This document shows, piece by piece, positions 11,388-31,810 of a stretch of DNA of 64,000 nucleotides. This DNA comes from a virus. The notes beneath the pieces were generated by a model. It was not told where the DNA came from. It did not search any database and saw only the letters and a list, made by a program, of their open reading frames with translations. Positions within the stretch are counted from its first letter, which is position 1, and every line of letters begins with the position of its first letter. The DNA is taken from IMG/VR virus record IMGVR_UViG_3300027906_000003, positions 32,001-96,000 of that record; one strand, given 5' to 3'. The translations under genes and the position numbers were made by a program.

Positions 11388-11600
11388 ATGGAAGAGTATG
11401 CACAAGTTGAAGGACATTCTAATCTTTTAAGAGATGAAGAATCTTCTGCAATTGTAAATACAGACATTGAACAATGGAAACTTGCAAAACAAAGAAAATT
11501 GCGTTTTCAAAACCAAGCGAAAGAGATAAATAGTTTAAAGAGTGAAGTTGGTGAAATTAAAAACCTACTTAACGATATATTAGGAAAGTTAAATGGCTAA
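11388..11600 (+). CDS. Small coiled-coil protein typically following VrlC-like gene
   Basis: VEGHSNLLRD..S.AIVN motif and C-terminal heptads; overlaps the next start. Confidence 0.7.
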   Translation: MEEYAQVEGHSNLLRDEESSAIVNTDIEQWKLAKQRKLRFQNQAKEINSLKSEVGEIKNLLNDILGKLNG

Positions 11601-13071
11601 AACCGTAGATAATTACAGCACAATAAACGAATTCAGAGAGAGATATAATGAACTTGCCACAGATGTAGGTGAGGTTTCAGGATTAAGACCTGCGTTAGGA
11701 GAAAATCTTGTTGATGCCGTTAACGCAGTAGAAGATAAAGCATTCTATTTTGGAAAGTATAGATATGTTGCAACTGCAGGACAACAAACATTCACAGGTG
11801 CAGATGCAAATGGAAACACTCTTAAATATAAAGGAAATAGAGTTCAAGTATTTAAGAATGGTTCGTTATTAGAAGAACAAACTGATTGGCAGGTTGGTGG
11901 ACTTGCAGGTGCTTTCTATTATGACATACAATTGATATCGGCGGCAAGTGCTAATGATTTAATACAAATCTATGCTTACACAGGTTCTTTTGAAGGAACT
12001 GCTACATCAACTGCAATACTTTCATTCTTTACAGAAACATTACAGAACACAATCTATAACACAAATTCAAATGGTGTTATACTTCAAGGAGATAATTCAT
12101 CTCCTACAACAACCTTACAAGGTGGATATACTTTACAACTTGCAGGTAAAACTTATGCAGAAGATGACCTAACACTTGCAACAGGTAAACTATTAACTGC
12201 ACCTACTATGACTGATGGCACTTTATCAATCGATAATGGTAACATAACAGCTGCGGTCAATGGAACATTCTCAGCACAAGTTCAAGCAGAACACTTAAAA
12301 TCAACAGATGATTTAGAAGTAGCCGAAGATGCAACAATTGGTGGTGACTTAGGAGTCACTGGAACTGCAACAGTAGGAACTTTGTCATCAGGTGGTATAA
12401 CAGGAACAACTGCAAGTTTTACAGGAAATGTAGACTTAGGAAGTGATGCAAATGATACAGTATCAATTCTTGGTGTTGTAGATACAAATATAATGCCTAA
12501 TTCAGATAATACTAGAACATTAGGTTCTTCTACAAAGAGATTTCAGAGTTTACATGCAACAACTATTACTGCAACAACATTAAATGGTGAACTAGTAGGT
12601 AATGTAAAAGGTGATATCCTTAAAGATGACGGAACCAAAATTTTAGAAAACTCAACAGGTGCGTTGACTGGTACCGTTTCTAGTGTTTCAAATCATGCAG
12701 CGTCAGGATTATCAGATATTAATTATACATCATCACCAGCTGCTGGTCAAGTCTTAGCATGGGATGCCTCAAACAATTATTGGGAACCTGTTAACCCTAC
12801 AAATACAACAGACTCAGTATCAGAGGGTTCAAACAATTATTACTTTACAGATGATAGGGTCAATGCAATCATTAATGCTAATGCAGGTTTAGCCAAATCA
12901 TATGCTACCAACACAGGAAATTCTTTGGATGGTGACATAAATATTAGTGTTAACACCGCAGAAGGAGTCAAAATTGATGGTGATAATGTGGTGATGGACA
13001 AAACAATAGTAAGTTCAGCTCCTTCTGGAGTTGGGTCGACATCATCAGGTCACTTATGGTTTGTAGTATAA
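11593..13071 (+). CDS. Tail fibre / whisker-like structural protein
   Basis: Gly/Thr-rich beta repeats, GQVLAWD and TDSVSEGSNNYYFT fibre motifs; ends in ...GHLWFVV. Confidence 0.65.
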   Translation: MAKTVDNYSTINEFRERYNELATDVGEVSGLRPALGENLVDAVNAVEDKAFYFGKYRYVATAGQQTFTGADANGNTLKYKGNRVQVFKNGSLLEEQTDWQVGGLAGAFYYDIQLISAASANDLIQIYAYTGSFEGTATSTAILSFFTETLQNTIYNTNSNGVILQGDNSSPTTTLQGGYTLQLAGKTYAEDDLTLATGKLLTAPTMTDGTLSIDNGNITAAVNGTFSAQVQAEHLKSTDDLEVAEDATIGGDLGVTGTATVGTLSSGGITGTTASFTGNVDLGSDANDTVSILGVVDTNIMPNSDNTRTLGSSTKRFQSLHATTITATTLNGELVGNVKGDILKDDGTKILENSTGALTGTVSSVSNHAASGLSDINYTSSPAAGQVLAWDASNNYWEPVNPTNTTDSVSEGSNNYYFTDDRVNAIINANAGLAKSYATNTGNSLDGDINISVNTAEGVKIDGDNVVMDKTIVSSAPSGVGSTSSGHLWFVV

Positions 13072-13074
13072 ATT

Positions 13075-14469
13075 ATGTCAGAGAAAATTTATGTAAATAC
13101 TGGTTCGACCTTTCAACAACCATTTAATGATAGGTCACCTAAGAATGCTCAGCAACCTTATATAGCTAATGCTCAGACTCCCTATATAGCTAATTCACAA
13201 ACACCCTTTACATATTCAAATAGACAACCTGCAAAGTATCAGAATCCAACTGATGCTCAGCAACCTTATATAGCTAATGCACAACAGTCGTATCCATATA
13301 TTGCTAATGCAAGACAACCTTACATAGCTAACGCACAACAACCTTATCCATATCAGGCAAATAGTCAGAATCCTTATATTGCGAATGCAAGGCAACCTGC
13401 GAAGTATCAACATCCGACATCTTCTCAGACTCCTTACATAGCTAATGCACAGACACCGTATCCTGCTAATGCAAGACAACCTAGTGATTATCAAACACCT
13501 TATATTGCAAATTATCAAACAGCGTATCCTGCAAATGCGAGACAACCTGTAGATGCTCAACAACCTAGTAATAGTCAAACACCATATCCTGCAAATGCTA
13601 GGCAACCTGCAAAATATAGAAACCCATTTACATATAATGCGAGGACTCCAGCATCTTCACAAACTCCTGTAACCTATGATGTGTGGGGTGGGGGAAATGC
13701 TCAATCAACATCACAATTAGAAACCACAACTGATGTGTCAGCACCTATGGCACCCTTTTCACAAACGCCTACTTTTAATTACCAGACTGTAGGTCAACCA
13801 ACATCAATTCATTGGGGTCCAGGTTCAACACATATAAAAAATAGTCCAAATTCATCATATGCTCCAACAACTGCACCTATGATTTGGAGTACCCAGCAAT
13901 ATAACACTTATAATTACAGTTTCGGTTCTTGTTGGGCTCAGTTCTTTATTGGTTATGAATCTAGTTCAGGCAAAGTTTACTACGGTTATGGTGCGGGTAA
14001 TTCTCAATTCGGAGGCACAAGTGTTGGCACCTCTGGTAATAGAGTATATTTACCTTTAACTGAATTAAGTAATAATAATGTTATTGATAGTTCTTGGTCA
14101 ATATCAGTCAAATATACAGTTCAATCACAAAGTATAGTTCAAGGTGGTACATCTTCTCAACATCCAGCTAGTCCGAGTTATGGTACAGGTTTAGCTGCTG
14201 GAACATATGTAAACATATGGGATGGTTCTTCTGTTCAAAGTAGTGGCATTGAAACATTCATGTGGGAGGCGGTATCATCATCTAACCCAGGAAATGGAGA
14301 TGCAAGGGTTTCTGCAAGTGGTGTAGTATTTACAGTTAAGGCACATAAGACTGGTCAAACATCATACTATACACATTATATTGTAGCACAACATGGAGCT
14401 GGTACCAGCTCACCTTTTGGTGAAATATATTTGAGGTCACTCTATGGTAATAACCATGCACCAGTATAA
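13075..14469 (+). CDS. Pro/Tyr/Gln repeat protein A1 (YIAN-type stalk plus C-terminal globular, putative adhesin domain)
   Basis: aa 16-197 are PYIANxQx-type repeats, followed by about 265 aa of non-repetitive aromatic/Ser/Gly-rich sequence. Confidence 0.75.
   Translation: MSEKIYVNTGSTFQQPFNDRSPKNAQQPYIANAQTPYIANSQTPFTYSNRQPAKYQNPTDAQQPYIANAQQSYPYIANARQPYIANAQQPYPYQANSQNPYIANARQPAKYQHPTSSQTPYIANAQTPYPANARQPSDYQTPYIANYQTAYPANARQPVDAQQPSNSQTPYPANARQPAKYRNPFTYNARTPASSQTPVTYDVWGGGNAQSTSQLETTTDVSAPMAPFSQTPTFNYQTVGQPTSIHWGPGSTHIKNSPNSSYAPTTAPMIWSTQQYNTYNYSFGSCWAQFFIGYESSSGKVYYGYGAGNSQFGGTSVGTSGNRVYLPLTELSNNNVIDSSWSISVKYTVQSQSIVQGGTSSQHPASPSYGTGLAAGTYVNIWDGSSVQSSGIETFMWEAVSSSNPGNGDARVSASGVVFTVKAHKTGQTSYYTHYIVAQHGAGTSSPFGEIYLRSLYGNNHAPV
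13120..13665 (+). repeat. Coding tandem repeat, 25 units of 6/8/10 aa (YIAN type)
   Basis: Parsed by hand from the translation; nearly all units begin with Pro. Confidence 0.9.
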
Positions 14470-14483
14470 GGAGATGAGAAGAT

Positions 14484-15200
14484 ATGCCTACAGTTAGTCA
14501 ACCAGTCATAATTCAGCAACCTTATATTGCAAGTGGTCAATCGCCGGTCGATTATAGAGTTCCGTTTACATATCAGGCAAGACAACCTGGAACATATAGA
14601 CACCCCTTTACATATCAAGTTCCGTTTACATATCAGGCAAGACAACCTGGAACATATGATGCAAGGCAACCTGCAAAGTATCAACACCCATTTATATATC
14701 AGGCACGACAGCCTTCTACATATCAGGCAAGACAACCTGCTATATACAGACATCCGGCAGATTATCAAACACCATTTACATATGCTCGTAGACAACCGGC
14801 AACATATGCAAGACAAGGTCAAACTCCGTTTACATATCAAGCAAGAACACCTTTCACATATGATAGACAAGGTCAAACACCATTTACATATCAGGCAAGA
14901 AGTCCGTTTACATACAGAAATCCAACAGACTATCAGACACCTTATATTGCAGATGCAAGACAACCTGGAACATATTCTAATAGACAACCATCCACTTATC
15001 AGAATAGACAACCATTCACATATCAACTTTCGGTTCCAAGCACAAGACCAATAGGTCCTTTGGCAAAAGCAAAACAAGTTTGGGTAAATGATAACGGAAC
15101 TTTAAAAAAGGCAAGTAGTGTATATGTAAATGATGGTGGAACGGCTAAAAAGATACATCAAACACAACCTACAGCACAATTAACAGAACCTAATACCTAG
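14484..15200 (+). CDS. Pro/Tyr/Gln repeat protein B1 (PFTY-type; mirror partner of A1)
   Basis: PFTYQARQ/PGTY repeats; C-terminal VWVNDNG and VYVNDGG motifs; AAGGAG SD upstream. Confidence 0.75.
   Translation: MPTVSQPVIIQQPYIASGQSPVDYRVPFTYQARQPGTYRHPFTYQVPFTYQARQPGTYDARQPAKYQHPFIYQARQPSTYQARQPAIYRHPADYQTPFTYARRQPATYARQGQTPFTYQARTPFTYDRQGQTPFTYQARSPFTYRNPTDYQTPYIADARQPGTYSNRQPSTYQNRQPFTYQLSVPSTRPIGPLAKAKQVWVNDNGTLKKASSVYVNDGGTAKKIHQTQPTAQLTEPNT
14502..15047 (+). repeat. Coding tandem repeat, 25 units of 6/8/10 aa (xTY type)
   Basis: Unit lengths are the reverse of those in 13120-13665. Confidence 0.9.
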
Positions 15201-15213
15201 AGTTCTTTTTTCG

Positions 15214-15221
15214 TATAAATA
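15214..15221 (+). promoter_or_regulatory. T4-type late promoter TATAAATA
   Basis: Exact consensus, 5 nt before ATG 15227. Confidence 0.8.
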
Positions 15222-15226
15222 GTTAT

Positions 15227-15562
15227 ATGGCTATTATCGCAAACTTATATATTGACCAAGGAACAGACTTCACAATTACAGTTGATGTCACAGACGCTGC
15301 TGGAGATGTTCTTAATTTGACTAACTATTCTGCGCTTGCACAAGTAAGAAAAACATATAGTTCTTCTAGTGCTTCAGTAGCATTTACTACTTCGATATCA
15401 GCAGCTCAAGGTCAAGTCACATTAAGTCTAAATGATACACAAACAAAAGCTTTAGAAGCAGGTCGATATGTTTACGATTTAAATATCACAAGTGCTGGTG
15501 GGATAACTACTAGAGTTGTCGAAGGACAAGCAATAGTGACACCAGGAGTAAGTCGGAGTTAA
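15227..15562 (+). CDS. Small Ig-like structural/adaptor protein (BppU-N-like)
   Basis: NLYIDQGTDF...GRYVYDL...TRVVEG..VTPGV pattern common in phage structural modules. Confidence 0.65.
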   Translation: MAIIANLYIDQGTDFTITVDVTDAAGDVLNLTNYSALAQVRKTYSSSSASVAFTTSISAAQGQVTLSLNDTQTKALEAGRYVYDLNITSAGGITTRVVEGQAIVTPGVSRS

Positions 15563-15564
15563 TT

Positions 15565-15807
15565 ATGTCGAACATTAAAGGAACAGTTTCAAGAGTTGTA
15601 GGTATCTCAGGTAGAGTTGGAGGCACAGGAAACATTCGTGCTAAACAAGTCCAAGTTGGTTCAGGTGGAGGTGCAGACTTATCAGCAAAATCTATAAATG
15701 AACTTGCAGATGTTAATGCAACTGAAACAGATGATGGTCTTCTTTCATATGACCAAGCATCAGATAAATGGACAACCACTACTACGATAGACGGCGGAAC
15801 ATTTTAA
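15565..15807 (+). CDS. Small fibre-associated protein ending in DGGTF
   Basis: LADVN...DGLLSYD....KW fibre motif; C-terminus TIDGGTF. Confidence 0.65.
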   Translation: MSNIKGTVSRVVGISGRVGGTGNIRAKQVQVGSGGGADLSAKSINELADVNATETDDGLLSYDQASDKWTTTTTIDGGTF

Positions 15808-15823
15808 AAAGTTTTAATATATT

Positions 15824-16687
15824 ATGGATGAATGGTCACCTTTGCGTGAAATCATTGTAGGCACACTTCAAGGTTTCGAAGAACATAATCACTATTCATC
15901 ATATCATTCCTCAAATAAATTCATTAAATCATTATATGATGAAGCAGAAGAGGGTCTACAAACATTTCAAAAACTATTAGAGAAAGAGGGTGTAATTGTT
16001 CATCGTCCTCGTGGTTTTTGTTATAATGTAAGAGATTGTGCTGTAGTATTAGGTGATACTATTGTTGAGGGTTCTATGAGATATGAAGAAGAGTATCTTT
16101 GGTTGGAATCTTTAAGACCAATATTCTTAGAAAGTGATTTAAATTATTTGATAGGTCCTAAACCCACATGGAAAAATGACGAACCCATATTTGATGGTGC
16201 AAATCTTTGTAAACTAGGAGATAGTGTTCTAATTGCAATTAATGAAACTGCAAATGATAAAGGAAAAATGTGGTTAGAGAAAACATTTCCAAATATAAAC
16301 TTCAATTCAATAAATCTAAAAGAAGATGTATCTCATATAGATACAACTATAGTTCCTATATCTTCTAATACTGTTTTATTAAACTCAAATAGATTAGACG
16401 AAGATACACTTCCATCTGTATTGAATGATTGGAATAAAATATGGGTTAAAGAAGAAGATTTAGTAGATGAAGCTAAAATGTTTGGATTTAAATATGGTGC
16501 AAGTAAGTGGATAGGTATGAATACTCTTTCTCTTAATGAGAATACACTATTCATTAGTGAAGGACAAGTAAAACTTATAGACATATTAGAGAGTAAGAAC
16601 TTTAATTGTATACCTGTTCCTTTAAGATATACCAGAGAACTTTGTGGTGGTTTACATTGTTGCACTTTAGACCTGGTTAGAGAATAG
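15824..16687 (+). CDS. Amidinotransferase (glycine/inosamine-phosphate amidinotransferase family)
   Basis: DEWSPLREIIVG, RD, FDGAN, HIDTT and GGLHCCTLDL motifs supply the Asp-His-Cys catalytic set of the pentein fold. Confidence 0.85.
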   Translation: MDEWSPLREIIVGTLQGFEEHNHYSSYHSSNKFIKSLYDEAEEGLQTFQKLLEKEGVIVHRPRGFCYNVRDCAVVLGDTIVEGSMRYEEEYLWLESLRPIFLESDLNYLIGPKPTWKNDEPIFDGANLCKLGDSVLIAINETANDKGKMWLEKTFPNINFNSINLKEDVSHIDTTIVPISSNTVLLNSNRLDEDTLPSVLNDWNKIWVKEEDLVDEAKMFGFKYGASKWIGMNTLSLNENTLFISEGQVKLIDILESKNFNCIPVPLRYTRELCGGLHCCTLDLVRE

Positions 16688-16693
16688 GATTTG

Positions 16694-16701
16694 TATAAAT
16701 A
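16694..16701 (+). promoter_or_regulatory. T4-type late promoter TATAAATA
   Basis: Exact consensus upstream of a long structured leader. Confidence 0.8.
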
Positions 16702-16715
16702 CTAATACAATCAAT

Positions 16716-16791
16716 GTGCCATTCAGTGAGGCACGAACCTCATAGTGAGAGGATAGCATATATGATTTCAATCTAGGGATAGTGAACTAGA
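16716..16791 (+). ncRNA. Candidate cis-regulatory RNA: three hairpins with AGUGA loops
   Basis: GTGCC-attcAGTGA-GGCAC; CCTC-atAGTGA-GAGG; TCTAG-ggatAGTGAa-CTAGA. Confidence 0.55.
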
Positions 16792-16835
16792 ATTTTGCAA
16801 AATTTTATTAAATATATTTTCTTTAGGAGAGAAAA

Positions 16836-18476
16836 ATGGCAACAGTAATTCAAATCAAACGAAGCACAGGAGTATCCGCACCAGCAGTCTCAGACTTAGC
16901 TGAAGGCGAATTAGCTTATGTGCAGGATAGGTCGAATTCAGGTGCTGGTGCTAAACTATACATCGAATCAGTAGATTCTGATAACTCTACTCCATTAATT
17001 CAAGCAATTGGTGGTAAGTATTATACAGATATCTTAGCTGGTTCAGCTGCGACTCCTGCCAACTTTAAAGTTGGTAATGGTTCAACAGCAGGTGCAAGTT
17101 TACAACTATTAGAAGACAGTGACAACGGAACACATTTCGTTGGATTAAAAGCTGCCGATACAATAGCTTCATCAGTTACCTTTACACTTCCAGCTGCCGA
17201 CGGTTCTGCTAACCAAGTGTTAGGAACAGACGGCTCAGGAACACTTTCGTTCTTATCAACAACATCTACGCTCGCAGGTGCAAGTGATACTAATATCACA
17301 ACACCAGCTGATGCGTCAATGCTTTTATATGACACAGGAACATCGAAATGGATAGACAATGTTATGTCCGGCGATGCTACTATGACAGATGGTGGTGTTT
17401 TAACAATCGCAAACGATGCCGTTGAACAGGCTATGATTGCAGACGACGCTGTTGGTGCAGACCAACTTGCGGCTTCAGCAGTTGTATTTGGTTCATTAGC
17501 AGGTGCGATGGTACAAACATCAGGTGAATCATTTAGTGATGACGATGTCTCATTAATGACTTCAGCTGCAATCTTGGACAAAATCCAAGCAACTGCAACA
17601 CTAGAAGACTTAGATGTCGCTGGTGATTCAGGAACAGGTGCAGTAGATTTAGACTCACAATCATTAACAATCGCTGGTACAGCGAACGAGATTGAAACAT
17701 CTGCTAGTGGACAAACTATAACAGTTGGTCTTCCTAACAATGTGACAGTCGCAAACAATTTAACCGTTTCAGGAAACTTAATATCAGACGATATTACAAC
17801 TGCAACTTTAACAACATCTGGTAACTTAACAGTCACAGGAAACTTGGCCGTTAACGGAACTACAACTACAGTAAACTCAACAACAGTAAATATTGCTGAC
17901 CCTGTATTTGAAATTGGTGACGATTCATCAGATGACAACCTAGACAGAGGTATTAAATTTAAATACAACTCTGGTGGTGCAAAGATTGGTTTCTTCGGAA
18001 TGGATGATACTGACGGTTCTTTTGTTGCTCTATCAAGTGCAACAGATAGTTCATCAGTATTCTCTGGAACTGCAATGGCAGGTAAATTCGGCAACTTAAC
18101 AGCTGCTGGTTTAGCAATGTCAGGAAGTATTTCTTCTTATGCAGGTTCAGCTCCAACAGATGGACAGTTATTAATAGGTGATACAGCTTCAGGAATAATG
18201 GACGCTGCTACTCTTACTGCTGGTGATGGTATTGACATCACTAACGGTGCAGGTGCAATTACGATTGCTACCGAAGTGGGTACTGCTTCTAACTTAGGTT
18301 CTGTAATTATCGCAGTTGGGGAAGGCATGGATGTGGCTTACTCAGGTGGTACTGCTACTCTTTCAGGAGAGGATGCAACTACAACCAATAAAGGTATTGC
18401 AAGTTTTGCTACAGCAAACTTTACAGTATCAAGTGGTGCGGTTTCTATCACAGGTATCGATGGCGGTACATTTTAA
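16836..18476 (+). CDS. Major fibre/filament subunit (IQIKRS N-domain, DGGTF C-terminus)
   Basis: MATVIQIKRS...LAEGELA N-terminus, GNLTVTGNLAVNGTTTTVNST fibre motif, strong AGGAG SD. Confidence 0.7.
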   Translation: MATVIQIKRSTGVSAPAVSDLAEGELAYVQDRSNSGAGAKLYIESVDSDNSTPLIQAIGGKYYTDILAGSAATPANFKVGNGSTAGASLQLLEDSDNGTHFVGLKAADTIASSVTFTLPAADGSANQVLGTDGSGTLSFLSTTSTLAGASDTNITTPADASMLLYDTGTSKWIDNVMSGDATMTDGGVLTIANDAVEQAMIADDAVGADQLAASAVVFGSLAGAMVQTSGESFSDDDVSLMTSAAILDKIQATATLEDLDVAGDSGTGAVDLDSQSLTIAGTANEIETSASGQTITVGLPNNVTVANNLTVSGNLISDDITTATLTTSGNLTVTGNLAVNGTTTTVNSTTVNIADPVFEIGDDSSDDNLDRGIKFKYNSGGAKIGFFGMDDTDGSFVALSSATDSSSVFSGTAMAGKFGNLTAAGLAMSGSISSYAGSAPTDGQLLIGDTASGIMDAATLTAGDGIDITNGAGAITIATEVGTASNLGSVIIAVGEGMDVAYSGGTATLSGEDATTTNKGIASFATANFTVSSGAVSITGIDGGTF

Positions 18477-18503
18477 TAACGCTTAATCTAACGGAGAATT
18501 CAG

Positions 18504-19331
18504 ATGGCAACAGTAATACAATTCAAAAGAAGTTCTACTCAGAATAGTGTTCCTGCTACTAGTGATTTAGCACTAGGTGAATTAGCAGTCAACACTTACC
18601 ACGGTAGATTCTATACTGAAAAGAACGATGGTTCTGCTTCAGTTGTAGAAGTTGGGTCTAACCCAGCATCTCTTACTGTTAACGACGCATTCTCATTCCC
18701 AACTGCTGACGGTTCTTCGAATCAGGTCTTAAAGACTAATGGTTCAGGAACTTTAGCGTGGTCAGACCAACCAAGTTCAGGCATGGTAGTATTTACATAT
18801 ACAATGTCTGGCACTACAACATCAATCACAGGTAATGATGATAGTTCAAACTCATTATCATATACAAGTGGTTCAGAATCAGTATACATCAACGGTGTTA
18901 AATTAGTTGGAGGTGGTGCAGACTATACTGCAACTAGCTCAACAGTTATAACACTTGCTGAGAATGCTGTATCTGGTGATGTTGTTCAGGTTGTTGCAAT
19001 AACAGCGGCTAGTAATCTAGTCCAAGGTTTCTTCACAACAGGAAGCTTTACAGCTACTACTGCAGACCAGGTCTTATCATCAAACGCAGTTGCGAACAAG
19101 GCAGTTAAGTATGTTATTAACGCCACACACGCGTCAGCAGGAACTCACGCAGCTGAGGTCCTACTGATTAATAATGGTACAAATTCATATTTTGTGCAAT
19201 ACGGTGATGTTTATTCATCATCTTCATTGTTTACTTTGAGTTCAGATATTGATTCAGGAAACATGAGATTACTCGTGACTCCTGCCAATACTAACACAAC
19301 GATAGACACTTTCCAAATTAGACATAGTTAA
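18504..19331 (+). CDS. Fibre subunit (IQFKRS N-domain, C-terminal beta-sandwich)
   Basis: N-terminus paralogous to 16836; C-domain paralogous to 19342 and 19844. Confidence 0.7.
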   Translation: MATVIQFKRSSTQNSVPATSDLALGELAVNTYHGRFYTEKNDGSASVVEVGSNPASLTVNDAFSFPTADGSSNQVLKTNGSGTLAWSDQPSSGMVVFTYTMSGTTTSITGNDDSSNSLSYTSGSESVYINGVKLVGGGADYTATSSTVITLAENAVSGDVVQVVAITAASNLVQGFFTTGSFTATTADQVLSSNAVANKAVKYVINATHASAGTHAAEVLLINNGTNSYFVQYGDVYSSSSLFTLSSDIDSGNMRLLVTPANTNTTIDTFQIRHS

Positions 19332-19341
19332 GGAGTAGAAA

Positions 19342-19752
19342 ATGGCTAAAACAAACGCATTTAAAATCGCTGAGTTAATAAGAGTTTTCTCTTATGATTC
19401 ATCTGCTGATGTTATCACTACTTCTAAGGAACTAGATACTAAACATAGAACTTCAAGTTCTTTGACAACAACTGCAACTACAGAGGTAAATTTAGATACC
19501 TTTGCTCATGCTTCTTATAGAGCAGCGAGATACATTGTGGCAATGTCAAAGGGTTCTGATTTCCATTCTACAGAGATAGTATTAGTTCATGACGGAAGTG
19601 CGGTGACAATGACTCAGTATGGCACACTCAAATCGGCCACTTTGGCATCATTTGATTCAGATATTTCTGGTTCAGATGCACGATTGAGGGTAACTCCAGC
19701 GTCAAGCAGTTCTACGGTTATTAATATTCATAGAGTATTAGTTTCAGCGTAA
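19342..19752 (+). CDS. Small structural protein (YRAARY...VHDG...TQYG domain)
   Basis: Paralogous to the C-domains of 18504 and 19844; AAGGAG SD. Confidence 0.65.
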   Translation: MAKTNAFKIAELIRVFSYDSSADVITTSKELDTKHRTSSSLTTTATTEVNLDTFAHASYRAARYIVAMSKGSDFHSTEIVLVHDGSAVTMTQYGTLKSATLASFDSDISGSDARLRVTPASSSSTVINIHRVLVSA

Positions 19753-19771
19753 GACTTCTTTATATTATTCG

Positions 19772-19798
19772 AAAGGGGAACTTAGTTCCCCTTTTTTT
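19772..19798 (+). terminator. Rho-independent terminator
   Basis: AAAGGGGAAC-TTA-GTTCCCC followed by a T run. Confidence 0.85.
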
Positions 19799-19811
19799 GG
19801 TCTACAAATCT

Positions 19812-19819
19812 TATAAATA
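19812..19819 (+). promoter_or_regulatory. T4-type late promoter TATAAATA
   Basis: Exact consensus just after the terminator. Confidence 0.8.
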
Positions 19820-19843
19820 GTATAACACAAGAGATTCTTTTAT

Positions 19844-20680
19844 ATGGCAACAAAATCTAAATTTTATGCAGACTTAGGATTAGAATCAGCAAGTAATTTG
19901 CAAGTTGATGGTAATGCAACCATTACAGGTAATTTAACTGTAAACGGAACAACCGTGACAGTTAATAGTGCCACAACTTCTGTTGCTGATTCAATGTTAG
20001 AACTTGCAAACGGCAATACATCGTCAGATACACTAGACATTGGGTTCTACGGAAACTATAATGACGGTATTGGTAGTGAAAGTGGTGTTTCAGAATATAC
20101 AGGACTCTTTAGAGATGCAAGTGATTCAACATGGAAACTATTTGATGGTTTAGAAGTAGAACCAACTTCAACTGTTAATGTTTCAGGAACAAATTATGCA
20201 CTTGCAGACATGCAGGTAGGTGACTTGACAGCAACAACTCTTACTGCAACAAACAGTATTACAGGTGCTTCGATAGTCTTTCCAACCAGTGACGGAACTA
20301 GTGGACAAGCTATTGTGACTAATGGTTCAGGAACTTTATCATTTGAGACCGTCTCAGGTGGTTTAGATGGTGGAACATTGACAACAACTTCAACTTCTGA
20401 AACTACAATGGATAGTTTTGTAATATCAACATATAGAAGTGGAAAATACCAAATCTCAATATCAGATTCAACTAGTGGAGATTATCAACAAACAGAAATC
20501 TCAGTAGTTCATGACGGAACGAGTGCCTACTTTACCCAATACGGAACGATAACAACAGATACAAGTGAATTGGCAACATTTGGAGTTGATATAAATATCA
20601 ATACCTTACGAATCAGGATAACTCCTGCTTCATCTAATTCAACTGTATTTAAATTTAAGAAAATACTTGTAGATATTTAA
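19844..20680 (+). CDS. Fibre subunit
   Basis: GNLTVNGTTVTVNS motif, FRDASD..WKLF, C-terminal YRSGKY...VVHDG...TQYG domain. Confidence 0.7.
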   Translation: MATKSKFYADLGLESASNLQVDGNATITGNLTVNGTTVTVNSATTSVADSMLELANGNTSSDTLDIGFYGNYNDGIGSESGVSEYTGLFRDASDSTWKLFDGLEVEPTSTVNVSGTNYALADMQVGDLTATTLTATNSITGASIVFPTSDGTSGQAIVTNGSGTLSFETVSGGLDGGTLTTTSTSETTMDSFVISTYRSGKYQISISDSTSGDYQQTEISVVHDGTSAYFTQYGTITTDTSELATFGVDININTLRIRITPASSNSTVFKFKKILVDI

Positions 20681-20710
20681 ATTTAGTCCGTGCCGAGAGG
20701 ACACAACTAT

Positions 20711-20718
20711 TATAAATA
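20711..20718 (+). promoter_or_regulatory. T4-type late promoter TATAAATA
   Basis: Exact consensus in an intergenic gap. Confidence 0.75.
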
Positions 20719-20754
20719 TCTGTATACTAACACATTCTAAACTAGGACAGATAT

Positions 20755-21015
20755 ATGGCAACAACAAATACATTTGTAGTAGAATACGGATTGACAGTTG
20801 GAACAACCGAAGTTATAAATTCATCAGGAAAGATACAAGCGGCAGCTATTTCAACCTTAGATTCTGATGACCTTTCGGAAGGTTCTACAAATCAATATTT
20901 TACTAACGCGAGAGCAAGAGGGTCTATATCCTTAGCTTCTGGAGAGACAAATCTCAGTTATAATTCTACATCTGGAGAACTTAGTCTACCAACAGTTAAC
21001 GGAGGTACCATCTAA
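20755..21015 (+). CDS. Short fibre linker protein
   Basis: FVVEYGL N-motif, DDLSEGSTNQYFTNARA motif, NGGTI C-terminus. Confidence 0.65.
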   Translation: MATTNTFVVEYGLTVGTTEVINSSGKIQAAAISTLDSDDLSEGSTNQYFTNARARGSISLASGETNLSYNSTSGELSLPTVNGGTI

Positions 21016-23084
21016 TGGCGGGTGAAAAGAACTTTAATATTAAAAATGGACTATCAGTTCAAGGCGTAGAAGTAATAAACTCGTCTGGTGACTTAGTTGC
21101 CGGCGGAGTTGGAACAGCAGTTCAAGAGGCCATTGCAGATAAAATCGGTGGAATACTCAGTGCAACAGGTGGTGCAACTGCAACATACAATGATGGTGCA
21201 GACACTATCGTTATTGATGTTCCAATTACAGATGAAGATAACATGGCATCAAACAGTGCTACTGCTATTCCTTCACAACAATCAGTCAAAGCATATGTAG
21301 ACTCTCAAATCTTAACAAAAGACAATACAGATGAGATAACAGAGGGTTCAACTAATTTATATTTCACAAACGCAAGAGCAGATGCCAGAATTGCAAACGC
21401 AATCAAAGATGAAGATAACATGGCATCAGATAGTGCAACTCATGTTCCTTCACAACAATCTGTTAAGGCTTTTGTAGCCACACAACTTGCAACTAAAGAC
21501 GCATTATCAGAACTTTCAGGTGATTCAGACGATATCACAGAGGGTACAACAAACTTATTCCATACATCTGAAAGAGTTGCAGATGTTGTTGGAGGAATGG
21601 TGACTTCAAATACCGAATCTGGTATAACAGTCACATATGAGGATGGTGATAACACTTTAGACTTTGCAATAGGAACACTAAACCAAAACACAACAGGTTC
21701 AGCAGCTACTCTAACAACTCCAAGAGCAATTTCAGGTACCAACTTTGATGGTTCTGCAGACATTACTTTAACGACTGCCGGAATAACAGAAAACACAAAT
21801 CTCTACTATACAAACGAAAGAGTTGATGATAGAGTCAACGCATTATTGACTGCTGGTACTAACATAACAACATCATACGATGATGCAAATGGTACCTTAA
21901 CAATTAACTCTTCAGGTAAAACAGAAGAAGAAATTGAAGACATTGTAAACGGATTAGTTGTTGGTGGAACAGGAATATCATCAACATATGATGACGCTGC
22001 TGGAACATTAACACTTGCAACTTCTATTACACAATATGCAGATTCAGATGCTAGAGGTGCTATCTCAGTCACAGATTCAGGTGGAGATGGTAGTTTAGCA
22101 TATAATAACTCAACAGGTGTAATAACTTATACAGGACCAAGTGCATCAGAAGTAAGAGCTCATCTAAGTGCTGGAACTGGTGTATCATATTCAGGTGGTG
22201 CAATCAGTATTGGTCAGGCAGTTTCAACTTCTTCAGATGTCACATTTGGGGATATAGCTGCAACAGATATAACACTATCTGGAAACTTAACAGTTAATGG
22301 TACCACAACAACAGCTGCTTCTACTAACACAGTAATCACAGATAGATTGATTGAGTTAGGAAACGGAACAACAGGAACACCAGCAAATGATATGGGTCTT
22401 GTCTTCGAAAGAGGAAGTTCAGACAATGTATTTGTAGGTTGGGACGAAAGTGCAGACGCTGTTACCGTAGGAACAGGTTCATTTACAGGTGCTAGCACAG
22501 GTGATTTAACACATACAGTAGCTAACTTTACTGCTGGTGTTGGAACATTTGCCTCATTAGATATTTCAGGAAACGCAGACATTGACGGAACAATGGAAGC
22601 AGATGCGTATACAGTTGACGGAACTGCATTAAACGAATACATTGCCGATACAGTTGGTGCAATGGTATCGTCAAATACTGAAAGTGGCATCACAGTTGCT
22701 TATCAAGACGGAGACAATACATTAGACTTTACAATCGGAACACTTAACCAAAACACTACAGGTTCAGCGGCAACATTAACAACAGCCAGAGCAATAGCAT
22801 TAGGTGGAGATTTATCAGGTTCTGCAAACTTTGATGGTTCTGCAGATATAACAATTACTGCTACAGTAGCAGATGATTCACACAATCATACAATTGCAAA
22901 TGTAGATGGACTACAAACTGCATTAGATTCAAAATATGATTCAGGTGATAATATTGCAGCGGGAACAATAACAACAACGAATGCAAGTAATTCGGGTGGA
23001 TATGTAAGAAATGTATATCAGTCAACATCTAATCCAGGCAGTAGTGATGGTGCAGTTGGTGACTTATGGATATTATACAGTTAA
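21015..23084 (+). CDS. Long fibre protein with internal duplications
   Basis: FNIKNGL N-motif. DEDNMAS...PSQQSVKA occurs twice and SNTESGITV...NQNTTGSAATLTT twice. Ends GDLWILYS. Confidence 0.7.
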   Translation: MAGEKNFNIKNGLSVQGVEVINSSGDLVAGGVGTAVQEAIADKIGGILSATGGATATYNDGADTIVIDVPITDEDNMASNSATAIPSQQSVKAYVDSQILTKDNTDEITEGSTNLYFTNARADARIANAIKDEDNMASDSATHVPSQQSVKAFVATQLATKDALSELSGDSDDITEGTTNLFHTSERVADVVGGMVTSNTESGITVTYEDGDNTLDFAIGTLNQNTTGSAATLTTPRAISGTNFDGSADITLTTAGITENTNLYYTNERVDDRVNALLTAGTNITTSYDDANGTLTINSSGKTEEEIEDIVNGLVVGGTGISSTYDDAAGTLTLATSITQYADSDARGAISVTDSGGDGSLAYNNSTGVITYTGPSASEVRAHLSAGTGVSYSGGAISIGQAVSTSSDVTFGDIAATDITLSGNLTVNGTTTTAASTNTVITDRLIELGNGTTGTPANDMGLVFERGSSDNVFVGWDESADAVTVGTGSFTGASTGDLTHTVANFTAGVGTFASLDISGNADIDGTMEADAYTVDGTALNEYIADTVGAMVSSNTESGITVAYQDGDNTLDFTIGTLNQNTTGSAATLTTARAIALGGDLSGSANFDGSADITITATVADDSHNHTIANVDGLQTALDSKYDSGDNIAAGTITTTNASNSGGYVRNVYQSTSNPGSSDGAVGDLWILYS

Positions 23085-23104
23085 TAACTGTAAGGTGAAA
23101 ATAA

Positions 23105-23977
23105 ATGGTAACAGGTAATCAAAAGGTTAAAACCCCAGCTGGTTGGAATTCAACTAGAGGGGCTTGGGTTAAGACTGCATCAGACACATGGACAGATGTT
23201 GACCAGATTTATGTAAAAACTCCAACAGGTTGGAATAATGCGTCAGGTCAGGCAATTACTCAGAACCCTTACCCATATATTGCGAATAATCAAACCCCTT
23301 ATATTGCTAATGCTCAACAGCCTTATCCTTATATTGCGAATAACCAGACTCCATATATTGCAAATGGTCAACAACCATATCCGTATATAGCAAACAGTCA
23401 GACTCCTTATATAGCAAACGGTCAACAACCTTATCCATATCAGGCAAATAGTCAGACTCCTTATATTGCTAACGCACAACAACCGTATCCATATATTGCG
23501 AATAGTCAATCACCATATATTGCTAATGCAAGACAACCTGCAAAATATCAGAATCCTGTAAATGGACAACAACCCTATATTGCAAATGGTCAAAGAAATG
23601 AGTCATACAGAAATCCTGTAAACTATCAGACACCTTATATTGCAAATGCTAGACAACCTGCACATTATAGGAATCCTGTAAGTTATCGTGTGCCTTATAT
23701 TGCAAATGGTCAACAACCATTTACCTATAATGCAAGGTATCCGGCAACATATCCGGCAAATGCTCAGCAACCATTCACCTACAATGCAAGGTATCCTGCA
23801 ACATATCCGGCAAATGCAAGACAACCATTTACATATAATGCAAGATATCCTGCAAATGCAACATATCCTGCAAACGGACAACAACCGTCTACATATCCGT
23901 TCTTGTATAATGCACCTTATCCATTCTTCCAACCATTTGGTGGCGGCGGTGGTTCACCTAACATGAACTTGAAATAA
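23105..23977 (+). CDS. Pro/Tyr/Gln repeat protein A2 (YIAN-type)
   Basis: Three VKT..W motifs at the N-terminus, then 26 repeat units. Confidence 0.75.
   Translation: MVTGNQKVKTPAGWNSTRGAWVKTASDTWTDVDQIYVKTPTGWNNASGQAITQNPYPYIANNQTPYIANAQQPYPYIANNQTPYIANGQQPYPYIANSQTPYIANGQQPYPYQANSQTPYIANAQQPYPYIANSQSPYIANARQPAKYQNPVNGQQPYIANGQRNESYRNPVNYQTPYIANARQPAHYRNPVSYRVPYIANGQQPFTYNARYPATYPANAQQPFTYNARYPATYPANARQPFTYNARYPANATYPANGQQPSTYPFLYNAPYPFFQPFGGGGGSPNMNLK
23267..23884 (+). repeat. Coding tandem repeat, 26 units of 6/8/10 aa
   Basis: (10,8)x5,(6,6,8)x3,8,10,8,10,8,6,6. Confidence 0.9.
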
Positions 23978-24011
23978 TGGAGTATATAATGAATAAAACG
24001 GAGAACACACA

Positions 24012-24749
24012 ATGGCTATAGGATTTTACTGGACAAGTGCTCAAGGTAACACTAGGTCACCGTTTACTTATCAAGTCCCATTTACATATCGTGTGCCTTA
24101 CATTGCAAATGGTAGGTCACCATTTACTTATCAAGCATCATATCGTGTGCCTTATATTGCGAATGGTAGAAGTCCTTTCACATATCAAGCATCATATCGT
24201 GTGCCTTACATTGCAAATGGTAGGTCACCGTTTACATATAATGCAAGGTATCCGGCAGGTTATAGAAATCCGGTAAGTTATCGAGTTCCGTTTACATATT
24301 CAAATAGACAACCTGCATTATATCAGAATCCTGTAATTTATCAAGTTCCGTTTACTTACAACAATAGGTCTCCGTTTACATACAGAAACCCTGTAGATTA
24401 TAGAATACCGTTTACATATCAGTCAAGACAACCAGGCACATATCAGAGAACAGGACAAACTCCATTCACTTATCAGAATAGACAACCTGGAACATATGAA
24501 ACACAAGGTCAAACACCATTTACCTATCAAAACAGGCAACCAGGAACATATGATAGGCAAGGACAGACTCCATTCACTTATCAGAATAGACAACCTGGAA
24601 CATATGCAAGACAAGGTCAGACTCCATTCACTTATCAGAATAGACAACCTGGAACATATGCTACACAAGGTAGAACACCAGTGTCTCGTTGGGATGGAGT
24701 TTTATCACAAACTTGGCCAGCAGCTCCGTTTGATGCTACAAACTCATAA
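24012..24749 (+). CDS. Pro/Tyr/Gln repeat protein B2 (PFTY-type; mirror partner of A2)
   Basis: PFTY/PGTY repeats; GGAG SD upstream. Confidence 0.75.
   Translation: MAIGFYWTSAQGNTRSPFTYQVPFTYRVPYIANGRSPFTYQASYRVPYIANGRSPFTYQASYRVPYIANGRSPFTYNARYPAGYRNPVSYRVPFTYSNRQPALYQNPVIYQVPFTYNNRSPFTYRNPVDYRIPFTYQSRQPGTYQRTGQTPFTYQNRQPGTYETQGQTPFTYQNRQPGTYDRQGQTPFTYQNRQPGTYARQGQTPFTYQNRQPGTYATQGRTPVSRWDGVLSQTWPAAPFDATNS
24060..24677 (+). repeat. Coding tandem repeat, 26 units of 6/8/10 aa
   Basis: 6,6,8,10,8,10,8,(8,6,6)x3,(8,10)x5, the exact reverse of A2. Confidence 0.9.
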
Positions 24750-24808
24750 ATCAACTCATAAAATAACACCTAAATATCTGTATTAAACAAACTTAATACA
24801 GGTATTTT

Positions 24809-26461
24809 ATGGCAGCTGATTCTAAATTTATTGACATCAAAACAGTTGAAGATGTTGATAAGATAAAACAAATAGATTTCTCAGATGTAGAGAACGCATT
24901 CTCTATAAGAAACAAAGAAGATTCTGAACACTATCATTTAGGAAGTCTAAATGTGAATCGTGTTATGAAAGATATCAATCCTTGTTATCAAGTTCTTAAA
25001 AAAGTATTCGAAGAGAAAAAAATACCACCTCTTAAATTATTTACATATGGTGATGTAATAAATGATAGAAGAGGAAATACAATGTTGACTATGCACGGTT
25101 TAAAACACCATTCTCTAGTATATAACGCATTCCTACCTTATGGTTATACTTGTGCTCCAACTCCAGAAATGTTTCCAACAGGAACAAATACATCTGTAAT
25201 TAGAACAGAAGAAGACCCAAATGGAGAAAGGTCTATAAATTATTATGCAGTAGAAAAAGATGAAGAAGATAGTCAATCTCAACCACAAAAAACACTTTGG
25301 GATAGTTCTTACTATCACGCTGCGAAAGCACACTGGTTAACTCAAAGTATAATTGAAGATGGTTTATGGGCACCAATACAAGGAATTATTTTAAAAGATA
25401 CTTCATGGATTGATGAAAACAATCCAGATGAAAAGTATAAATTCTATGTTCATCCAGGTTCTGTTCGTTCAGGTGTTATTGAAGAAATGCAAGACCCTAG
25501 TATGATGTGTCATTTCTTTGACCCACATAACAAGGTTCCTGATGTTGAACCAGCAACAGTAGATGAGTTTTTGGATTATTGGAAAGACTTACTTGAAAAA
25601 AGAAATATAGAACAAGACAATCTATCTTTTATTATAACAGGTGGAGTTATAGAGGTAAGCAGTGAGTTTGCAAATGTGTCTGATTTTAGGCCTAAAATAT
25701 ATGAGTTTAATAAGAAAGTTCATAAACTTGCAAAAGGTAAACCTCTAAACATATACATTGGTTATGACTCAACACATAATCAATTAGAAGAATTAACCAA
25801 GTTCTCCATAGAAGACTCAATTAAACAAAGTTTTTCTGCAAATACAAAAACAAATCGATTCATTCCTGAGATAAAAATGCTTGACTATTCTAAGATTCCA
25901 GTGTATAATAGGGAGTATGCAAATCAATCTACTGCGTTTACATACAGTAGATTTTTGATACCTTACTTAGAGAATTATGAAGGATTCAGTATGTTTCTTG
26001 ATGATGATATTCTTTTTGAAGAGAATTTATTACCAATGTTCTACTATCTAAATCCTGATGATGCGGTTGCGTGTATTCAATACCCACAATATAAACACGA
26101 TTCTGTTAAGTTTAATGGTGAAATAAACATAGATTATCCATGTAAGTTGTGGTCTTCATTAATGATATTTAATAATGGACATGAAGACTGTAAGAAACTA
26201 ACACCAGAAGTTGTTAATACATGGACAGGTGCTCAGTTGCATCAGTTCGAATGGACAGATAAATTGAGTAAGATACCTGAACACTATATTTTTACTGAAG
26301 GATATGATAATCCAGAAACCAAATGGGGTTGTTCTGGTTATCATTATACAAGAGGTGGTCCTTGGATAGATAACATGGACACATCTAATATTAAAAGACT
26401 ATCACACTATGAGAAAATAAAGACTCGTAGAGACAACCTAAATAATTTGAAGAGAGGATAA
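24809..26461 (+). CDS. Two-domain protein with C-terminal GT-A glycosyltransferase
   Basis: IYIGYD, STAFTYSRFLIP, MFLDDD (DxD), WSSLMIFN and HYTRGGPW motifs. N-terminal ~300 aa unassigned. Confidence 0.75.
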   Translation: MAADSKFIDIKTVEDVDKIKQIDFSDVENAFSIRNKEDSEHYHLGSLNVNRVMKDINPCYQVLKKVFEEKKIPPLKLFTYGDVINDRRGNTMLTMHGLKHHSLVYNAFLPYGYTCAPTPEMFPTGTNTSVIRTEEDPNGERSINYYAVEKDEEDSQSQPQKTLWDSSYYHAAKAHWLTQSIIEDGLWAPIQGIILKDTSWIDENNPDEKYKFYVHPGSVRSGVIEEMQDPSMMCHFFDPHNKVPDVEPATVDEFLDYWKDLLEKRNIEQDNLSFIITGGVIEVSSEFANVSDFRPKIYEFNKKVHKLAKGKPLNIYIGYDSTHNQLEELTKFSIEDSIKQSFSANTKTNRFIPEIKMLDYSKIPVYNREYANQSTAFTYSRFLIPYLENYEGFSMFLDDDILFEENLLPMFYYLNPDDAVACIQYPQYKHDSVKFNGEINIDYPCKLWSSLMIFNNGHEDCKKLTPEVVNTWTGAQLHQFEWTDKLSKIPEHYIFTEGYDNPETKWGCSGYHYTRGGPWIDNMDTSNIKRLSHYEKIKTRRDNLNNLKRG

Positions 26462-26464
26462 ATT

Positions 26465-27046
26465 ATGAATGATATAAAAAACGCTTTAGTTTTTTGTGAG
26501 AACAGAAATCTTTGGATAAGAAAACCAAACGGACTTGAATACGAATTTCAGAATGTTGATAAACCTGCATTAGGTTTTGAATTTGATGTTGTAATATATG
26601 ATGAGATGGAAAGTAAAATTCTTAAATGGGACCCAAATAAAAATTTTGACGAACAAGAAATAGTTCCTTTAAATGAAAGTGAGAAAGAACTTTGTGAACA
26701 ATATATTGCAAATTCAGAAGCACCAGAAGGAATAAATCTACACAATCAATATGTAGAAAGACTTGGTGATTATTGCAGACAACAACAAGAAGAAGTTCGA
26801 ATGACTTATGGTTTCCGTGATATGGAAATGGTATTGGTTGCTGGTAGAGAGGGTTCAAATCATCCTATGAGAGGAAATGCCAGAAGAGTATTAGAGTATG
26901 TTGATAATACACATCAAATATTTGCTTCGGTAACTGATGAAATCTTTGCAACTAAAGAAGAACTACTTAAAGATTATGATGTTTATAGAAGACAGATACC
27001 TCAATCGTCTATGGCTACAGGCCATGCCGAATTAGGTAATGCCTAA
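26465..27046 (+). CDS. Hypothetical protein
   Basis: 193-aa ORF tightly packed in the operon. Confidence 0.7.
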   Translation: MNDIKNALVFCENRNLWIRKPNGLEYEFQNVDKPALGFEFDVVIYDEMESKILKWDPNKNFDEQEIVPLNESEKELCEQYIANSEAPEGINLHNQYVERLGDYCRQQQEEVRMTYGFRDMEMVLVAGREGSNHPMRGNARRVLEYVDNTHQIFASVTDEIFATKEELLKDYDVYRRQIPQSSMATGHAELGNA

Positions 27047-27048
27047 AG

Positions 27049-27792: not shown

Positions 27793-27793
27793 A

Positions 27794-28879: not shown

Positions 28880-28882
28880 ATT

Positions 28883-31595: not shown

Positions 31596-31810
31596 TGATA
31601 GAAAAAATAATTGCAGATACACTTAATGTAAAAGAAGATGTTATTAAAGACGATTCAAACTTTGTAGAAGATTTAGGTGCAGACTCACTTAACATTGTTG
31701 AACTAGTTATGCAAGTTGAAGAAAACTACGACATGGAAATTTCTGATGATGATGCAGAAACATTACATACAGTTGCAGACTTGAAACAGTATATAGAGGA
31801 CTATTCATAA
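31595..31810 (+). CDS. acpP: Acyl carrier protein
   Basis: FVEDLGADSLNIVELVM with the phosphopantetheine Ser; acidic 71-aa protein. Confidence 0.9.
   Translation: MIEKIIADTLNVKEDVIKDDSNFVEDLGADSLNIVELVMQVEENYDMEISDDDAETLHTVADLKQYIEDYS

Follow-up and report, generated by a model that had tools for sequence, protein, structure and literature searches.

How do two neighboring phage genes come to encode repeat proteins in which the units of one follow the reverse of the order seen in the other? The question is posed by a window of 64,000 nucleotides (nt) from an uncultured marine T4-like phage, positions 32,001 to 96,000 of the 123,820-base IMG/VR virus record IMGVR_UViG_3300027906_000003 (estimated to be 69% complete), which carries two separate pairs of adjacent genes, A1/B1 and A2/B2 (Table 1), with gaps of 14 and 34 nt, respectively, between A and B. 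An earlier note on this DNA had proposed that A and B of each pair zip into an antiparallel duplex whose register is fixed by an irregular pattern of proline-delimited units. The sequences speak for an antiparallel pairing of A with B in several ways, namely by mirror symmetry among homologs with compensated evolution of unit strings, complementarity of unit types, residue covariation, a two-residue parity, natural fusions and a split terminal module. From these patterns, we infer physical pairing, beta conformation, docking, stoichiometry and function, and consider it likely that A and B constitute an antiparallel split hairpin that forms a beta-type distal tail-fiber shaft docked on the product of the fiber gene directly upstream.

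Mirror order in the window and among its relatives

Cutting the four shafts at proline yields units of 6, 8 and 10 amino acids (aa), along with PY+8 and similar forms that we read as 10. The mirror relation was measured independently of any choice of unit boundaries, by counting the coincident prolines between A and reversed B at all offsets. The reversed comparison of A1/B1 gives 23 coincidences vs 15 in the forward direction (30 prolines in B1), and that of A2/B2 gives 26 vs 18 (29 prolines in B2). At a single gapless offset, 23 of the 26 repeat prolines of B1 and 26 of the 27 of B2 lie opposite a proline of the respective A, and the shafts of each pair are exactly equal in length (183/183 and 207/207 residues), with proline facing proline free of gaps over that entire span. 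Non-cognate reversed comparisons yield 15 and 13 coincidences, and all forward, non-cognate and self comparisons fall between 13 and 18 (e.g., 16/43 for A1 against its own reverse), except for A2 against its own reverse, which reaches 23 because of its regular (10,8) arrays. The permutation test that the earlier note had called for bears the relation out: none of 20,000 shuffles of the unit order of B equals the observed value in either cognate pair (0/20,000 for both), and the non-cognate values are unremarkable, being reached by 870 (A1/B2) and 4,038 (A2/B1) of 20,000 shuffles. The claim of 25/25 and 26/26 mirrored units stands if four boundaries lacking an in-register proline (three in pair 1 and one in pair 2) are set by motif; it falls if proline alone is used, by which count there are 22 and 25 paired blocks, including merged ones of 12, 14, 16 or 18 aa. 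Two finer claims of that note hold as made: in all five cases where A switches to PFTY, B switches to PYIA at the mirrored position, and all five PAKY hexamers in the window lie opposite PxDY.

Two scans of viral contigs returned 158 loci, each with at least one repeat open reading frame (ORF) (158/158), and 135 of the 158 have exactly two. That homologous pairs would share the mirror symmetry was a central prediction of the earlier note, and all 62 distinct adjacent pairs indeed score higher reversed than forward; 61 of them beat all 300 shuffles (z 3.9–18.6), and the remaining pair, with a contig-truncated A, ties. Removal of near-duplicates left 45 non-redundant pairs, including the two in the window, which have mirrored spans of 99–533 residues and widely differing unit strings, each aligned at one gapless offset. 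Over these 45 pairs, 1,267 of 1,484 repeat prolines of B coincide with a proline of A, the share being at least 90% in 22 pairs and 100% in 8. The anticipated compensation of unit changes in A by changes in B is likewise observed, in that the differing strings stay mirrored in the 45 pairs. These resolve into two conserved families, type 1 (A1/B1-like) and type 2 (A2/B2-like).

A search for longer relatives, followed by a self-mirror test, recovered natural single-chain fusions. Five clusters of 482–491 aa display the type-1 A N-terminus at their start and the type-1 B C-terminus at their end, and their arms are mirror-complementary about a central non-repeat domain, with 34, 34, 32, 24 and 24 coincidences that are reached by 0, 0, 2, 12 and 9 of 2,000 shuffles, respectively. 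They use the same unit pairs as the two-gene form along with a second class, PNIRN-type against PxxYDHRS-type 8-mers (in P0183, P0186, P0198, P0209 and P0239), and the alphabet of the putative code is therefore larger than the two types of the window. Overall, the single-ORF form is present in 17 viral loci, among which the simple proline mirror test is strong (z > 4) in L181 and L191–L196 only. Judged by their arms, the two-gene form is a split hairpin, or the fusion a joined pair, with the same rule operating within one chain.

Pairing rule, covariation and conserved ends

The pairing rule was counted over 1,227 paired blocks from the 45 non-redundant pairs. Complementarity of unit types, which the earlier note had read from the window, extends to 456 of the 458 typed 8-mer pairs, in which PYxA faces PxxY (325 with PYxA in A and 131 with PYxA in B), the same-type pairs being 1 + 1. 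PYPYxA 10-mers face PxxY-type 10-mers in 174 + 27 cases, with 3 of the same type, and Tyr-less hexamers (PxNAQQ-like) face PxxY hexamers in 146 + 111 cases, where the rule is looser because there are also 26 Y/Y and 50 other/other pairs. PxKY hexamers lie opposite PxDY in 7/7 cases in the non-redundant homologs. When B is slid by 1–3 units, complementarity drops from 0.946 to 0.57–0.69 and equality of length from 1.0, a shift-0 value that is partly given by construction, to 0.28–0.43. Among 184 distinct 8-mer pairs, position 2 of PxxY covaries with positions 6 (0.48 bits) and 8 (0.41 bits) of the facing PYxA unit. This covariation concerns residue size: at these positions, Phe accompanies Ala/Gly and Gln, and Gly/Ser/Thr accompany Ser/Arg and Thr/Asn. 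With proline set against proline, the covarying positions lie straight across from each other or on the diagonal and share one parity and one face, a pattern that is predicted by side-chain contact across an antiparallel pair.

A strict two-residue parity runs through both chains. Over 10,411 aligned columns, proline makes up 30.5% (A) and 26.8% (B) of the residues on one parity vs 0.0% on the other, and aromatic residues make up 33.3% and 34.5% on the parity opposite to proline vs 0.1%. All paired blocks are of even length (1,227/1,227), with paired units of 6 (342), 8 (561) and 10 aa (245) in irregular order. In the four shafts of the window, the power at period 2 is 3.2–8.6 vs 0.02–0.13 at period 3, and at periods 3.6 and 7 it is 0.0–0.37. 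Proline is known to serve in edge protection of beta sheets. We read the parity as the mark of very long strands in extended conformation whose two faces differ; the Pro/Pro register would bring the aromatic faces of A and B to the same side.

The ends of the proteins are conserved in a family-specific manner. Type-1 pairs have one hairpin-like motif on the N-terminus of A and two on the C-terminus of B (16/16), and type-2 pairs have three motif matches on the N-terminus of A in 22/25 cases and two in the other 3, with none on the C-terminus of B. The three motifs are united in type 1 only if the N-terminus of A meets the C-terminus of B, so that, going by this split, the two termini belong together; the two kinds of motifs are presumably equivalent between the families. 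The gene directly 5′ of a pair is in every case fiber-like; that of type-1 pairs ends in GH[LI]W[FL]V[IV] at 15/15 non-redundant loci (with a gap of −2 to 16 nt), and that of type-2 pairs ends in VGD[LM]W[IV][LY]Y[SA] at 25/25 loci. Both upstream genes in the window carry the conserved ending of their family, and the one preceding A2 matches the tail-fiber families phrog_697, phrog_11011 and phrog_1833. These linkages point to a three-gene module comprising a carrier fiber, A and B. In the long tail fiber of T4, gp35 is a known monomeric adaptor between trimeric segments.

The remaining terminal regions are of variable extent. B has a head of 6–23 aa in 45/45 pairs, and the C-terminal tail of A varies from 17 to 354 aa among the homologs. 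For the C-terminal domain of A1, AlphaFold2 (AF2) predicts strands over residues 274–457 with a predicted local distance difference test (pLDDT) score of 55–75, and five homologs are found in a large protein database. Residues 195–227 of B1, in its tail, match phrog_13729 (function unknown; E 2.4e-5). Longer repeat-protein relatives of ~365–590 aa (P0011, P0133, P0140 and others) contain domains of the Hint/intein type (PF14890, PF01079, PF14623 and PF05203); in P0011, it follows the repeats after a Gly run and a Cys, and A2 has a similar Gly run with no such domain. Some fibers could conceivably undergo autoprocessing or ligation at their distal end.

A candidate split-hairpin shaft and its rivals

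We posit that the A shaft, read from N to C, runs antiparallel to the B shaft in one fixed register, with a column of prolines facing a column of prolines. The rule would be that facing units are equal in length (6, 8 or 10 aa) and opposite in type (PYxA vs PxxY), the PYxA type being shortened to PxNAQQ-like in hexamers and lengthened to PYPYxA in decamers. Both chains would be extended beta-type strands, displaying prolines and most polar residues on one face and Tyr/Phe and most Ala on the other. By textbook beta-sheet geometry, the prolines could occupy outward, non-hydrogen-bonded sites of the ribbon, where no inter-strand bond is lost and lateral growth is blocked, and the one continuous aromatic face would be buried against further ribbons or another fiber; three ribbons, as in the gp37 needle of T4, are one possible packing. 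The end with the N-terminus of A, the C-terminus of B and the three small motifs is predicted to dock on the conserved C-terminus of the upstream fiber protein, and the opposite end (C-terminus of A and N-terminus of B) would be the distal tip, where A1 has a variable domain and A2 lacks one. The objects in question would be the thin distal shafts of two different tail fibers of a pelagimyophage-like T4-type phage, which at a rise of 3.3 Å per residue would measure ~60–70 nm here and up to ~175 nm in relatives. Zipping could begin at the tip, because the A-then-B order sets the last-made part of A beside the first-made part of B.

Several observations weigh against this proposal or restrict it. 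In 11 of the 45 pairs, fewer than 75% of the B prolines are coincident; three of these are contig-truncated ORFs, and the others contain units with a missing or internal proline through which the frame continues. The homologous pairs are phylogenetically related, and the counts are not of independent events. Among the single-ORF loci, the proline test is intermediate in L190 and L214 (z 2.6 and 2.9) and weak (z ≤ 1.4) in L182–L186, L199 and L201, where the arms align partly. AF2 models of A1 (from an 8-sequence alignment) and of the fused P0183 (from a 5-sequence alignment; mean pLDDT 28.1, no fold) both give the repeats a pLDDT of 20–32, and in the Atlas, B2 by itself is modeled as an extended chain with low confidence (pLDDT 0.58). 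For two RNA libraries, contigs span 8/30 bins each, too small a part for a claim of transcription. The final object may consist of two chains only, in the form of a flat beta-ribbon, as the earlier note had it; a lone, very long two-stranded ribbon with an exposed aromatic face would not be stable, and the real assembly must therefore hold more components. The same note saw the irregular pattern as a barcode against A1/B2 cross-pairing, which it may be, the tested part being that a mirror match is lacking between non-cognate shafts. Complex prediction of A1 (residues 1–225) with B1 gave a score of 0.00, which is neutral for and against binding.

Four alternatives were weighed. A long mRNA or DNA hairpin between the coding regions of A and B would also give mirror order by its topology, yet such a constraint is refuted at the level of the sequence, and we give it next to no probability. 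The genes, as the earlier note observed, do not form DNA inverted repeats: when A is compared with the reverse complement of B, identity peaks at 0.354 and 0.362 for the two pairs (background mean over all offsets 0.256), a chance agreement of two short consensus units, because each consensus recurs ~25 times, and same-strand comparisons of A and B DNA score higher (0.415–0.525). Facing proline codons are unable to pair because CCN is not complementary to CCN, and synonymous positions are free; the pentapeptide PYIAN has 15 DNA versions among its 23 copies, with a third-position identity of ~0.55, and selection therefore acts on the protein. A derivation of B as the antisense of A was considered and rejected, since the antisense of PYIANAQQ-coding DNA yields no CC dinucleotide and the reverse-complement identity is ≤0.36. 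That each protein folds by itself or forms its own homo-oligomeric fiber, with the mirror relation as a relic of gene origin, accords with the usual homotrimeric state of phage fibers and with the 23 coincidences of A2 with its own reverse. The latter arise from its (10,8) arrays, A1 reaching only 16/43 by the same comparison; moreover, a relic would erode, whereas all 45 pairs obey the rule with strings that differ, the relation is one of complementarity rather than identity, and we know of no DNA mechanism that reverses unit order while keeping unit orientation. We regard such a relic as very improbable.

A and B might also have no mutual contact and both lie along a third irregular template, e.g., a trimeric fiber shaft, for which the conserved fiber genes directly upstream and the need of the aromatic face for a partner could speak. 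Against it, shaft length ranges from 99 to 533 aa in the relatives, the upstream proteins have no matching unit pattern, A and B being the only repeat ORFs in 135/158 loci, and the facing of opposite types and the covariation between A and B are predictions of direct contact; we hold this option to be decidedly unlikely. Alternatively, B could be a transient template or assembly chaperone for A, binding in the same antiparallel register and remaining outside the finished fiber. In the window, B begins directly after A (gaps of 14 and 34 nt) and lacks a distal domain, and its place is that of T4 gp38 or lambda Tfa, the established cases of chaperone genes that commonly follow a tail-fiber gene (touched on in the excerpted text of PMC6957217). 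Nevertheless, in type 1, two of the three conserved motifs at the termini are found on B, complementing the one on A (16/16), the natural fusions contain the B arm within their single chain, and a unit-matched, shaft-length partner far exceeds what known chaperones provide; we consider a chaperone role unlikely.

Known phage fibers are parallel homotrimers with the register set by symmetry, and a signature matched change by change is familiar from RNA helices and, to our knowledge, from no proteins. Among antiparallel arrangements, the arms of SMC/Rad50 are formed by distant segments whose lengths and interruptions stay mirror-matched through evolution, but they are alpha-helical, heptad-based and in one chain, whereas the chains here are usually separate, with a proline every 6–10 residues, period 2, and only weak power at the 3.6- and 7-residue periods, unlike the 3.5–3.6-residue heptad period of an antiparallel coiled coil. 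The stalk of streptococcal antigen I/II, in which an A-region helix runs antiparallel to a P-region polyproline helix with the functional domain at the tip, is similar in its two repeat types, its long thin antiparallel stalk and its tip domain; it differs in combining an alpha helix with polyproline-II, in its long repeats and single chain, and in having no two-letter code at the level of units. The triple-stranded beta-helix of T4 gp5C/gp12 is likewise built in phage tail proteins from short beta repeats of ~8 residues, with octapeptide repeats in identical parallel chains; the irregular, matched unit lengths in two antiparallel chains here depart from the uniform octapeptide and identical chains by which that fold is generally defined. 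The four shafts have no G-x-x-G-x-x-G runs and favor period 2 over period 3, which differs from collagen-like and polyproline-II folds. A super-repeat of 10+8 (18 aa) or 6+6+8 (20 aa) could suggest a beta-solenoid.

The closest structure is the gp37 needle, a distal element of a T4-type fiber with the hairpin topology common to the fused relatives here. As described in the excerpted text of PMC6957217, each chain of the gp37 trimer extends to the tip and comes back, which makes a needle of six antiparallel strands (domains D10–D11, with D10 formed by residues 811–881 and 1010–1026) along which His-x-His motifs bind iron. Ascending and returning antiparallel segments are indicated here by covariation and the fusions, not by a structure. 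In gp37, one chain forms a short iron/His needle within a homotrimer, whereas most of the present phages use two gene products with arms of 99–533 aa drawn from a small alphabet of complementary units, and HxH motifs are absent from the four shafts and from all 20,732 shaft residues of the non-redundant set. Neither sequence nor profile comparison detected similarity to gp37 (Pfam at E ≤ 0.01; best PDB match at E 0.078). T4 gp37/gp38 and lambda Stf/Tfa are likewise two-gene fiber modules, with a second gene whose product acts on that of the first; such chaperones are not known to be unit-by-unit mirror complements of the fiber shaft, whereas B bears conserved motifs at its terminus and, in some relatives, forms one chain with A.

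A few complementary repeat units, through their order, apparently set the register of two unlike chains. We lean somewhat towards seeing in this a protein duplex with a digital code, in which two types and three lengths make six states that are read by complement and define a unique register. Such a code could evolve through unit changes that compensate each other and could operate within one chain or between two, and one virion could carry two orthogonal fibers. Were the rule sufficient for assembly, it would offer a programmable scaffold for beta-type protein nanofibers and a new principle of length control in phage fibers. Physical pairing itself would represent a new structural principle for long thin fibers and a natural sequence-to-pairing rule that is testable and reusable in protein design, and it would explain how the fibers of these abundant marine phages range from ~100 to >500 residues per arm with assembly retained. 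Viral repeat proteins that are hard to model and look disordered could then be read directly from their sequences.

Genomic setting, distribution and neighboring genes

The T4-type genes of the window include those for the baseplate wedge, terminase, tail sheath, portal, scaffold and major head protein. The last shares 67.7% identity with its counterpart in Methylophilales phage Melnitz and 66.8% with the one in Pelagibacter phage HTVC008M. The excerpted text of PMC7029224 defines the region between a giant VrlC-like gene and gp14 as the host recognition cluster of pelagimyophages, a variable island of tail-fiber genes and glycosyltransferases in a T4-like marine myovirus. A1/B1 and A2/B2 lie in such a region, bounded by a giant DUF4815 protein, presumably VrlC, and by gp14/gp15, and including a GT8-like gene; the head-protein identities fit this assignment, and the genes neighboring the pairs match tail-fiber PHROGs.

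Table 1. Genes and protein segments of the window, in order of position
Feature	Positions	Strand	Description
Giant DUF4815 protein	4676–11383		2,235 aa; landmark on one side of A1/B1/A2/B2
Upstream fiber-like gene	11593–13071	+	492 aa; C-terminus ...GHLWFVV; proposed carrier of pair 1
A1	13075–14469	+	Whole gene
A1 N-terminal module	13075–13119	+	Residues 1–15; one hairpin-like motif (IYVNTG type)
A1 shaft	13120–13668	+	183 residues, mostly PYxA type; mirrors B1 shaft
A1 C-terminal domain	13669–14469	+	Non-repeat, ~266 aa, beta-rich; proposed distal tip
B1	14484–15200	+	Whole gene
B1 N-terminal head	14484–14501	+	6 residues before first paired Pro
B1 shaft	14502–15050	+	183 residues, mostly PxxY type; mirror complement of A1 shaft
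B1 C-terminal module	15048–15200	+	Two hairpin-like motifs (VWVNDNG/VYVNDGG type)
Upstream fiber gene	21015–23084	+	689 aa; C-terminus ...GDLWILYS; proposed carrier of pair 2
A2	23105–23977	+	Whole gene
A2 N-terminal module	23105–23266	+	Residues 1–54; three VKT...W hairpin-like motifs
A2 shaft	23267–23887	+	207 residues; (10,8)x5, (6,6,8)x3, 8,10,8,10,8,6,6
A2 C-terminal tail	23885–23977	+	30 aa, Gly run, no globular domain
B2	24012–24749	+	Whole gene
B2 N-terminal head	24012–24059	+	16 residues
B2 shaft	24060–24680	+	207 residues; mirror complement of A2 shaft
B2 C-terminal tail	24678–24749	+	RWD...W type, kept in type-2 pairs
GT8-like glycosyltransferase	24809–26461	+ (as B2)	First gene of cassette 3′ of B2
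ORF, no assignment	between 24809–26461 and 27049–27792 genes		Cassette 3′ of B2
2OG-Fe(II) oxygenase	27049–27792		PF13640; cassette 3′ of B2
Second ORF, no assignment	between the two oxygenases		Cassette 3′ of B2
Second 2OG-Fe(II) oxygenase	28883–29599		PF13759; cassette 3′ of B2
Neck gene gp14	30741–31595		Landmark on other side of A1/B1/A2/B2
Neck gene gp15	31810–32853		Landmark beside gp14

An exhaustive profile search of 1.84 billion representatives returned 127 clusters at E ≤ 0.001, of which 73 were at E ≤ 1e-10; the database relatives are all metagenomic proteins, the nearest Atlas clusters being viral. In the genomes of cellular species, only 2 loci were found, both in metagenome-assembled contigs. 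For A1, B1, A2 and B2, no Pfam family was recovered at E ≤ 0.01, no PDB sequence better than E 0.078, and no PHROG other than the single match of phrog_13729 to the tail of B1. The A1 model matched only uncharacterized proteins at low template-modeling (TM) scores in a viral fold library, and generic Ig-like sandwiches (Z ≤ 4.8) in a wide fold search. The GenBank phage collection gave no DNA match to either pair and no protein match to A1, though the low-complexity filter of BLAST may mask true relatives in such searches of named phages. A 42% identity (E 3e-4) of B1 to a hypothetical protein of three Pseudomonas phages was set aside as a composition-level match, because that protein lies in a regulatory/replication region. 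The isolates HTVC008M, Melnitz and Mosig have no protein match to the repeat proteins, and the PYIAN-coding pattern has 0, 1 and 1 matches in them, respectively, vs 23 in the genome of the window; no cultured carrier of such pairs was found among the phage isolates searched. The Creative Commons-licensed PMC and bioRxiv texts searched, with supplements outside the scope, contain no description of mirror-complementary repeat protein pairs. In PMC7029224, the word "proline" occurs 0 times; its excerpted text makes no mention of these proteins, and its supplementary tables may list the genes.

Contigs from two other marine DNA runs match parts of the A1/B1 stretch (13075–15200) with 0–1 differences, and short-read contigs misjoin or break within the repeats. 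A same-strand cassette lies directly 3′ of B2 (24809–29599; Table 1). Between the two pairs, several small fiber-like genes fill positions 16836–20680; those at 16836 and 18504 share a nearly identical N-terminus (MATVIQ.KRS), those ending at 19331, 19752 and 20680 are alike in their C-terminal segment, and together they look like a set of interchangeable fiber modules. Within the same fiber cluster, 15824–16687 encodes a 287-aa non-fiber protein, the sole match of which is phrog_25854 (function unknown; E 3.1e-21). The repeat genes are overlapped by long ORFs on the opposite strand (13216–13605, 14442–15077, 23243–23509, 23603–23932 and 24423–24668) and in other frames of the same strand (14527–15054, 23688–23966 and 24496–24786), which look less like genes than like by-products of the very few codons that the repeats use.

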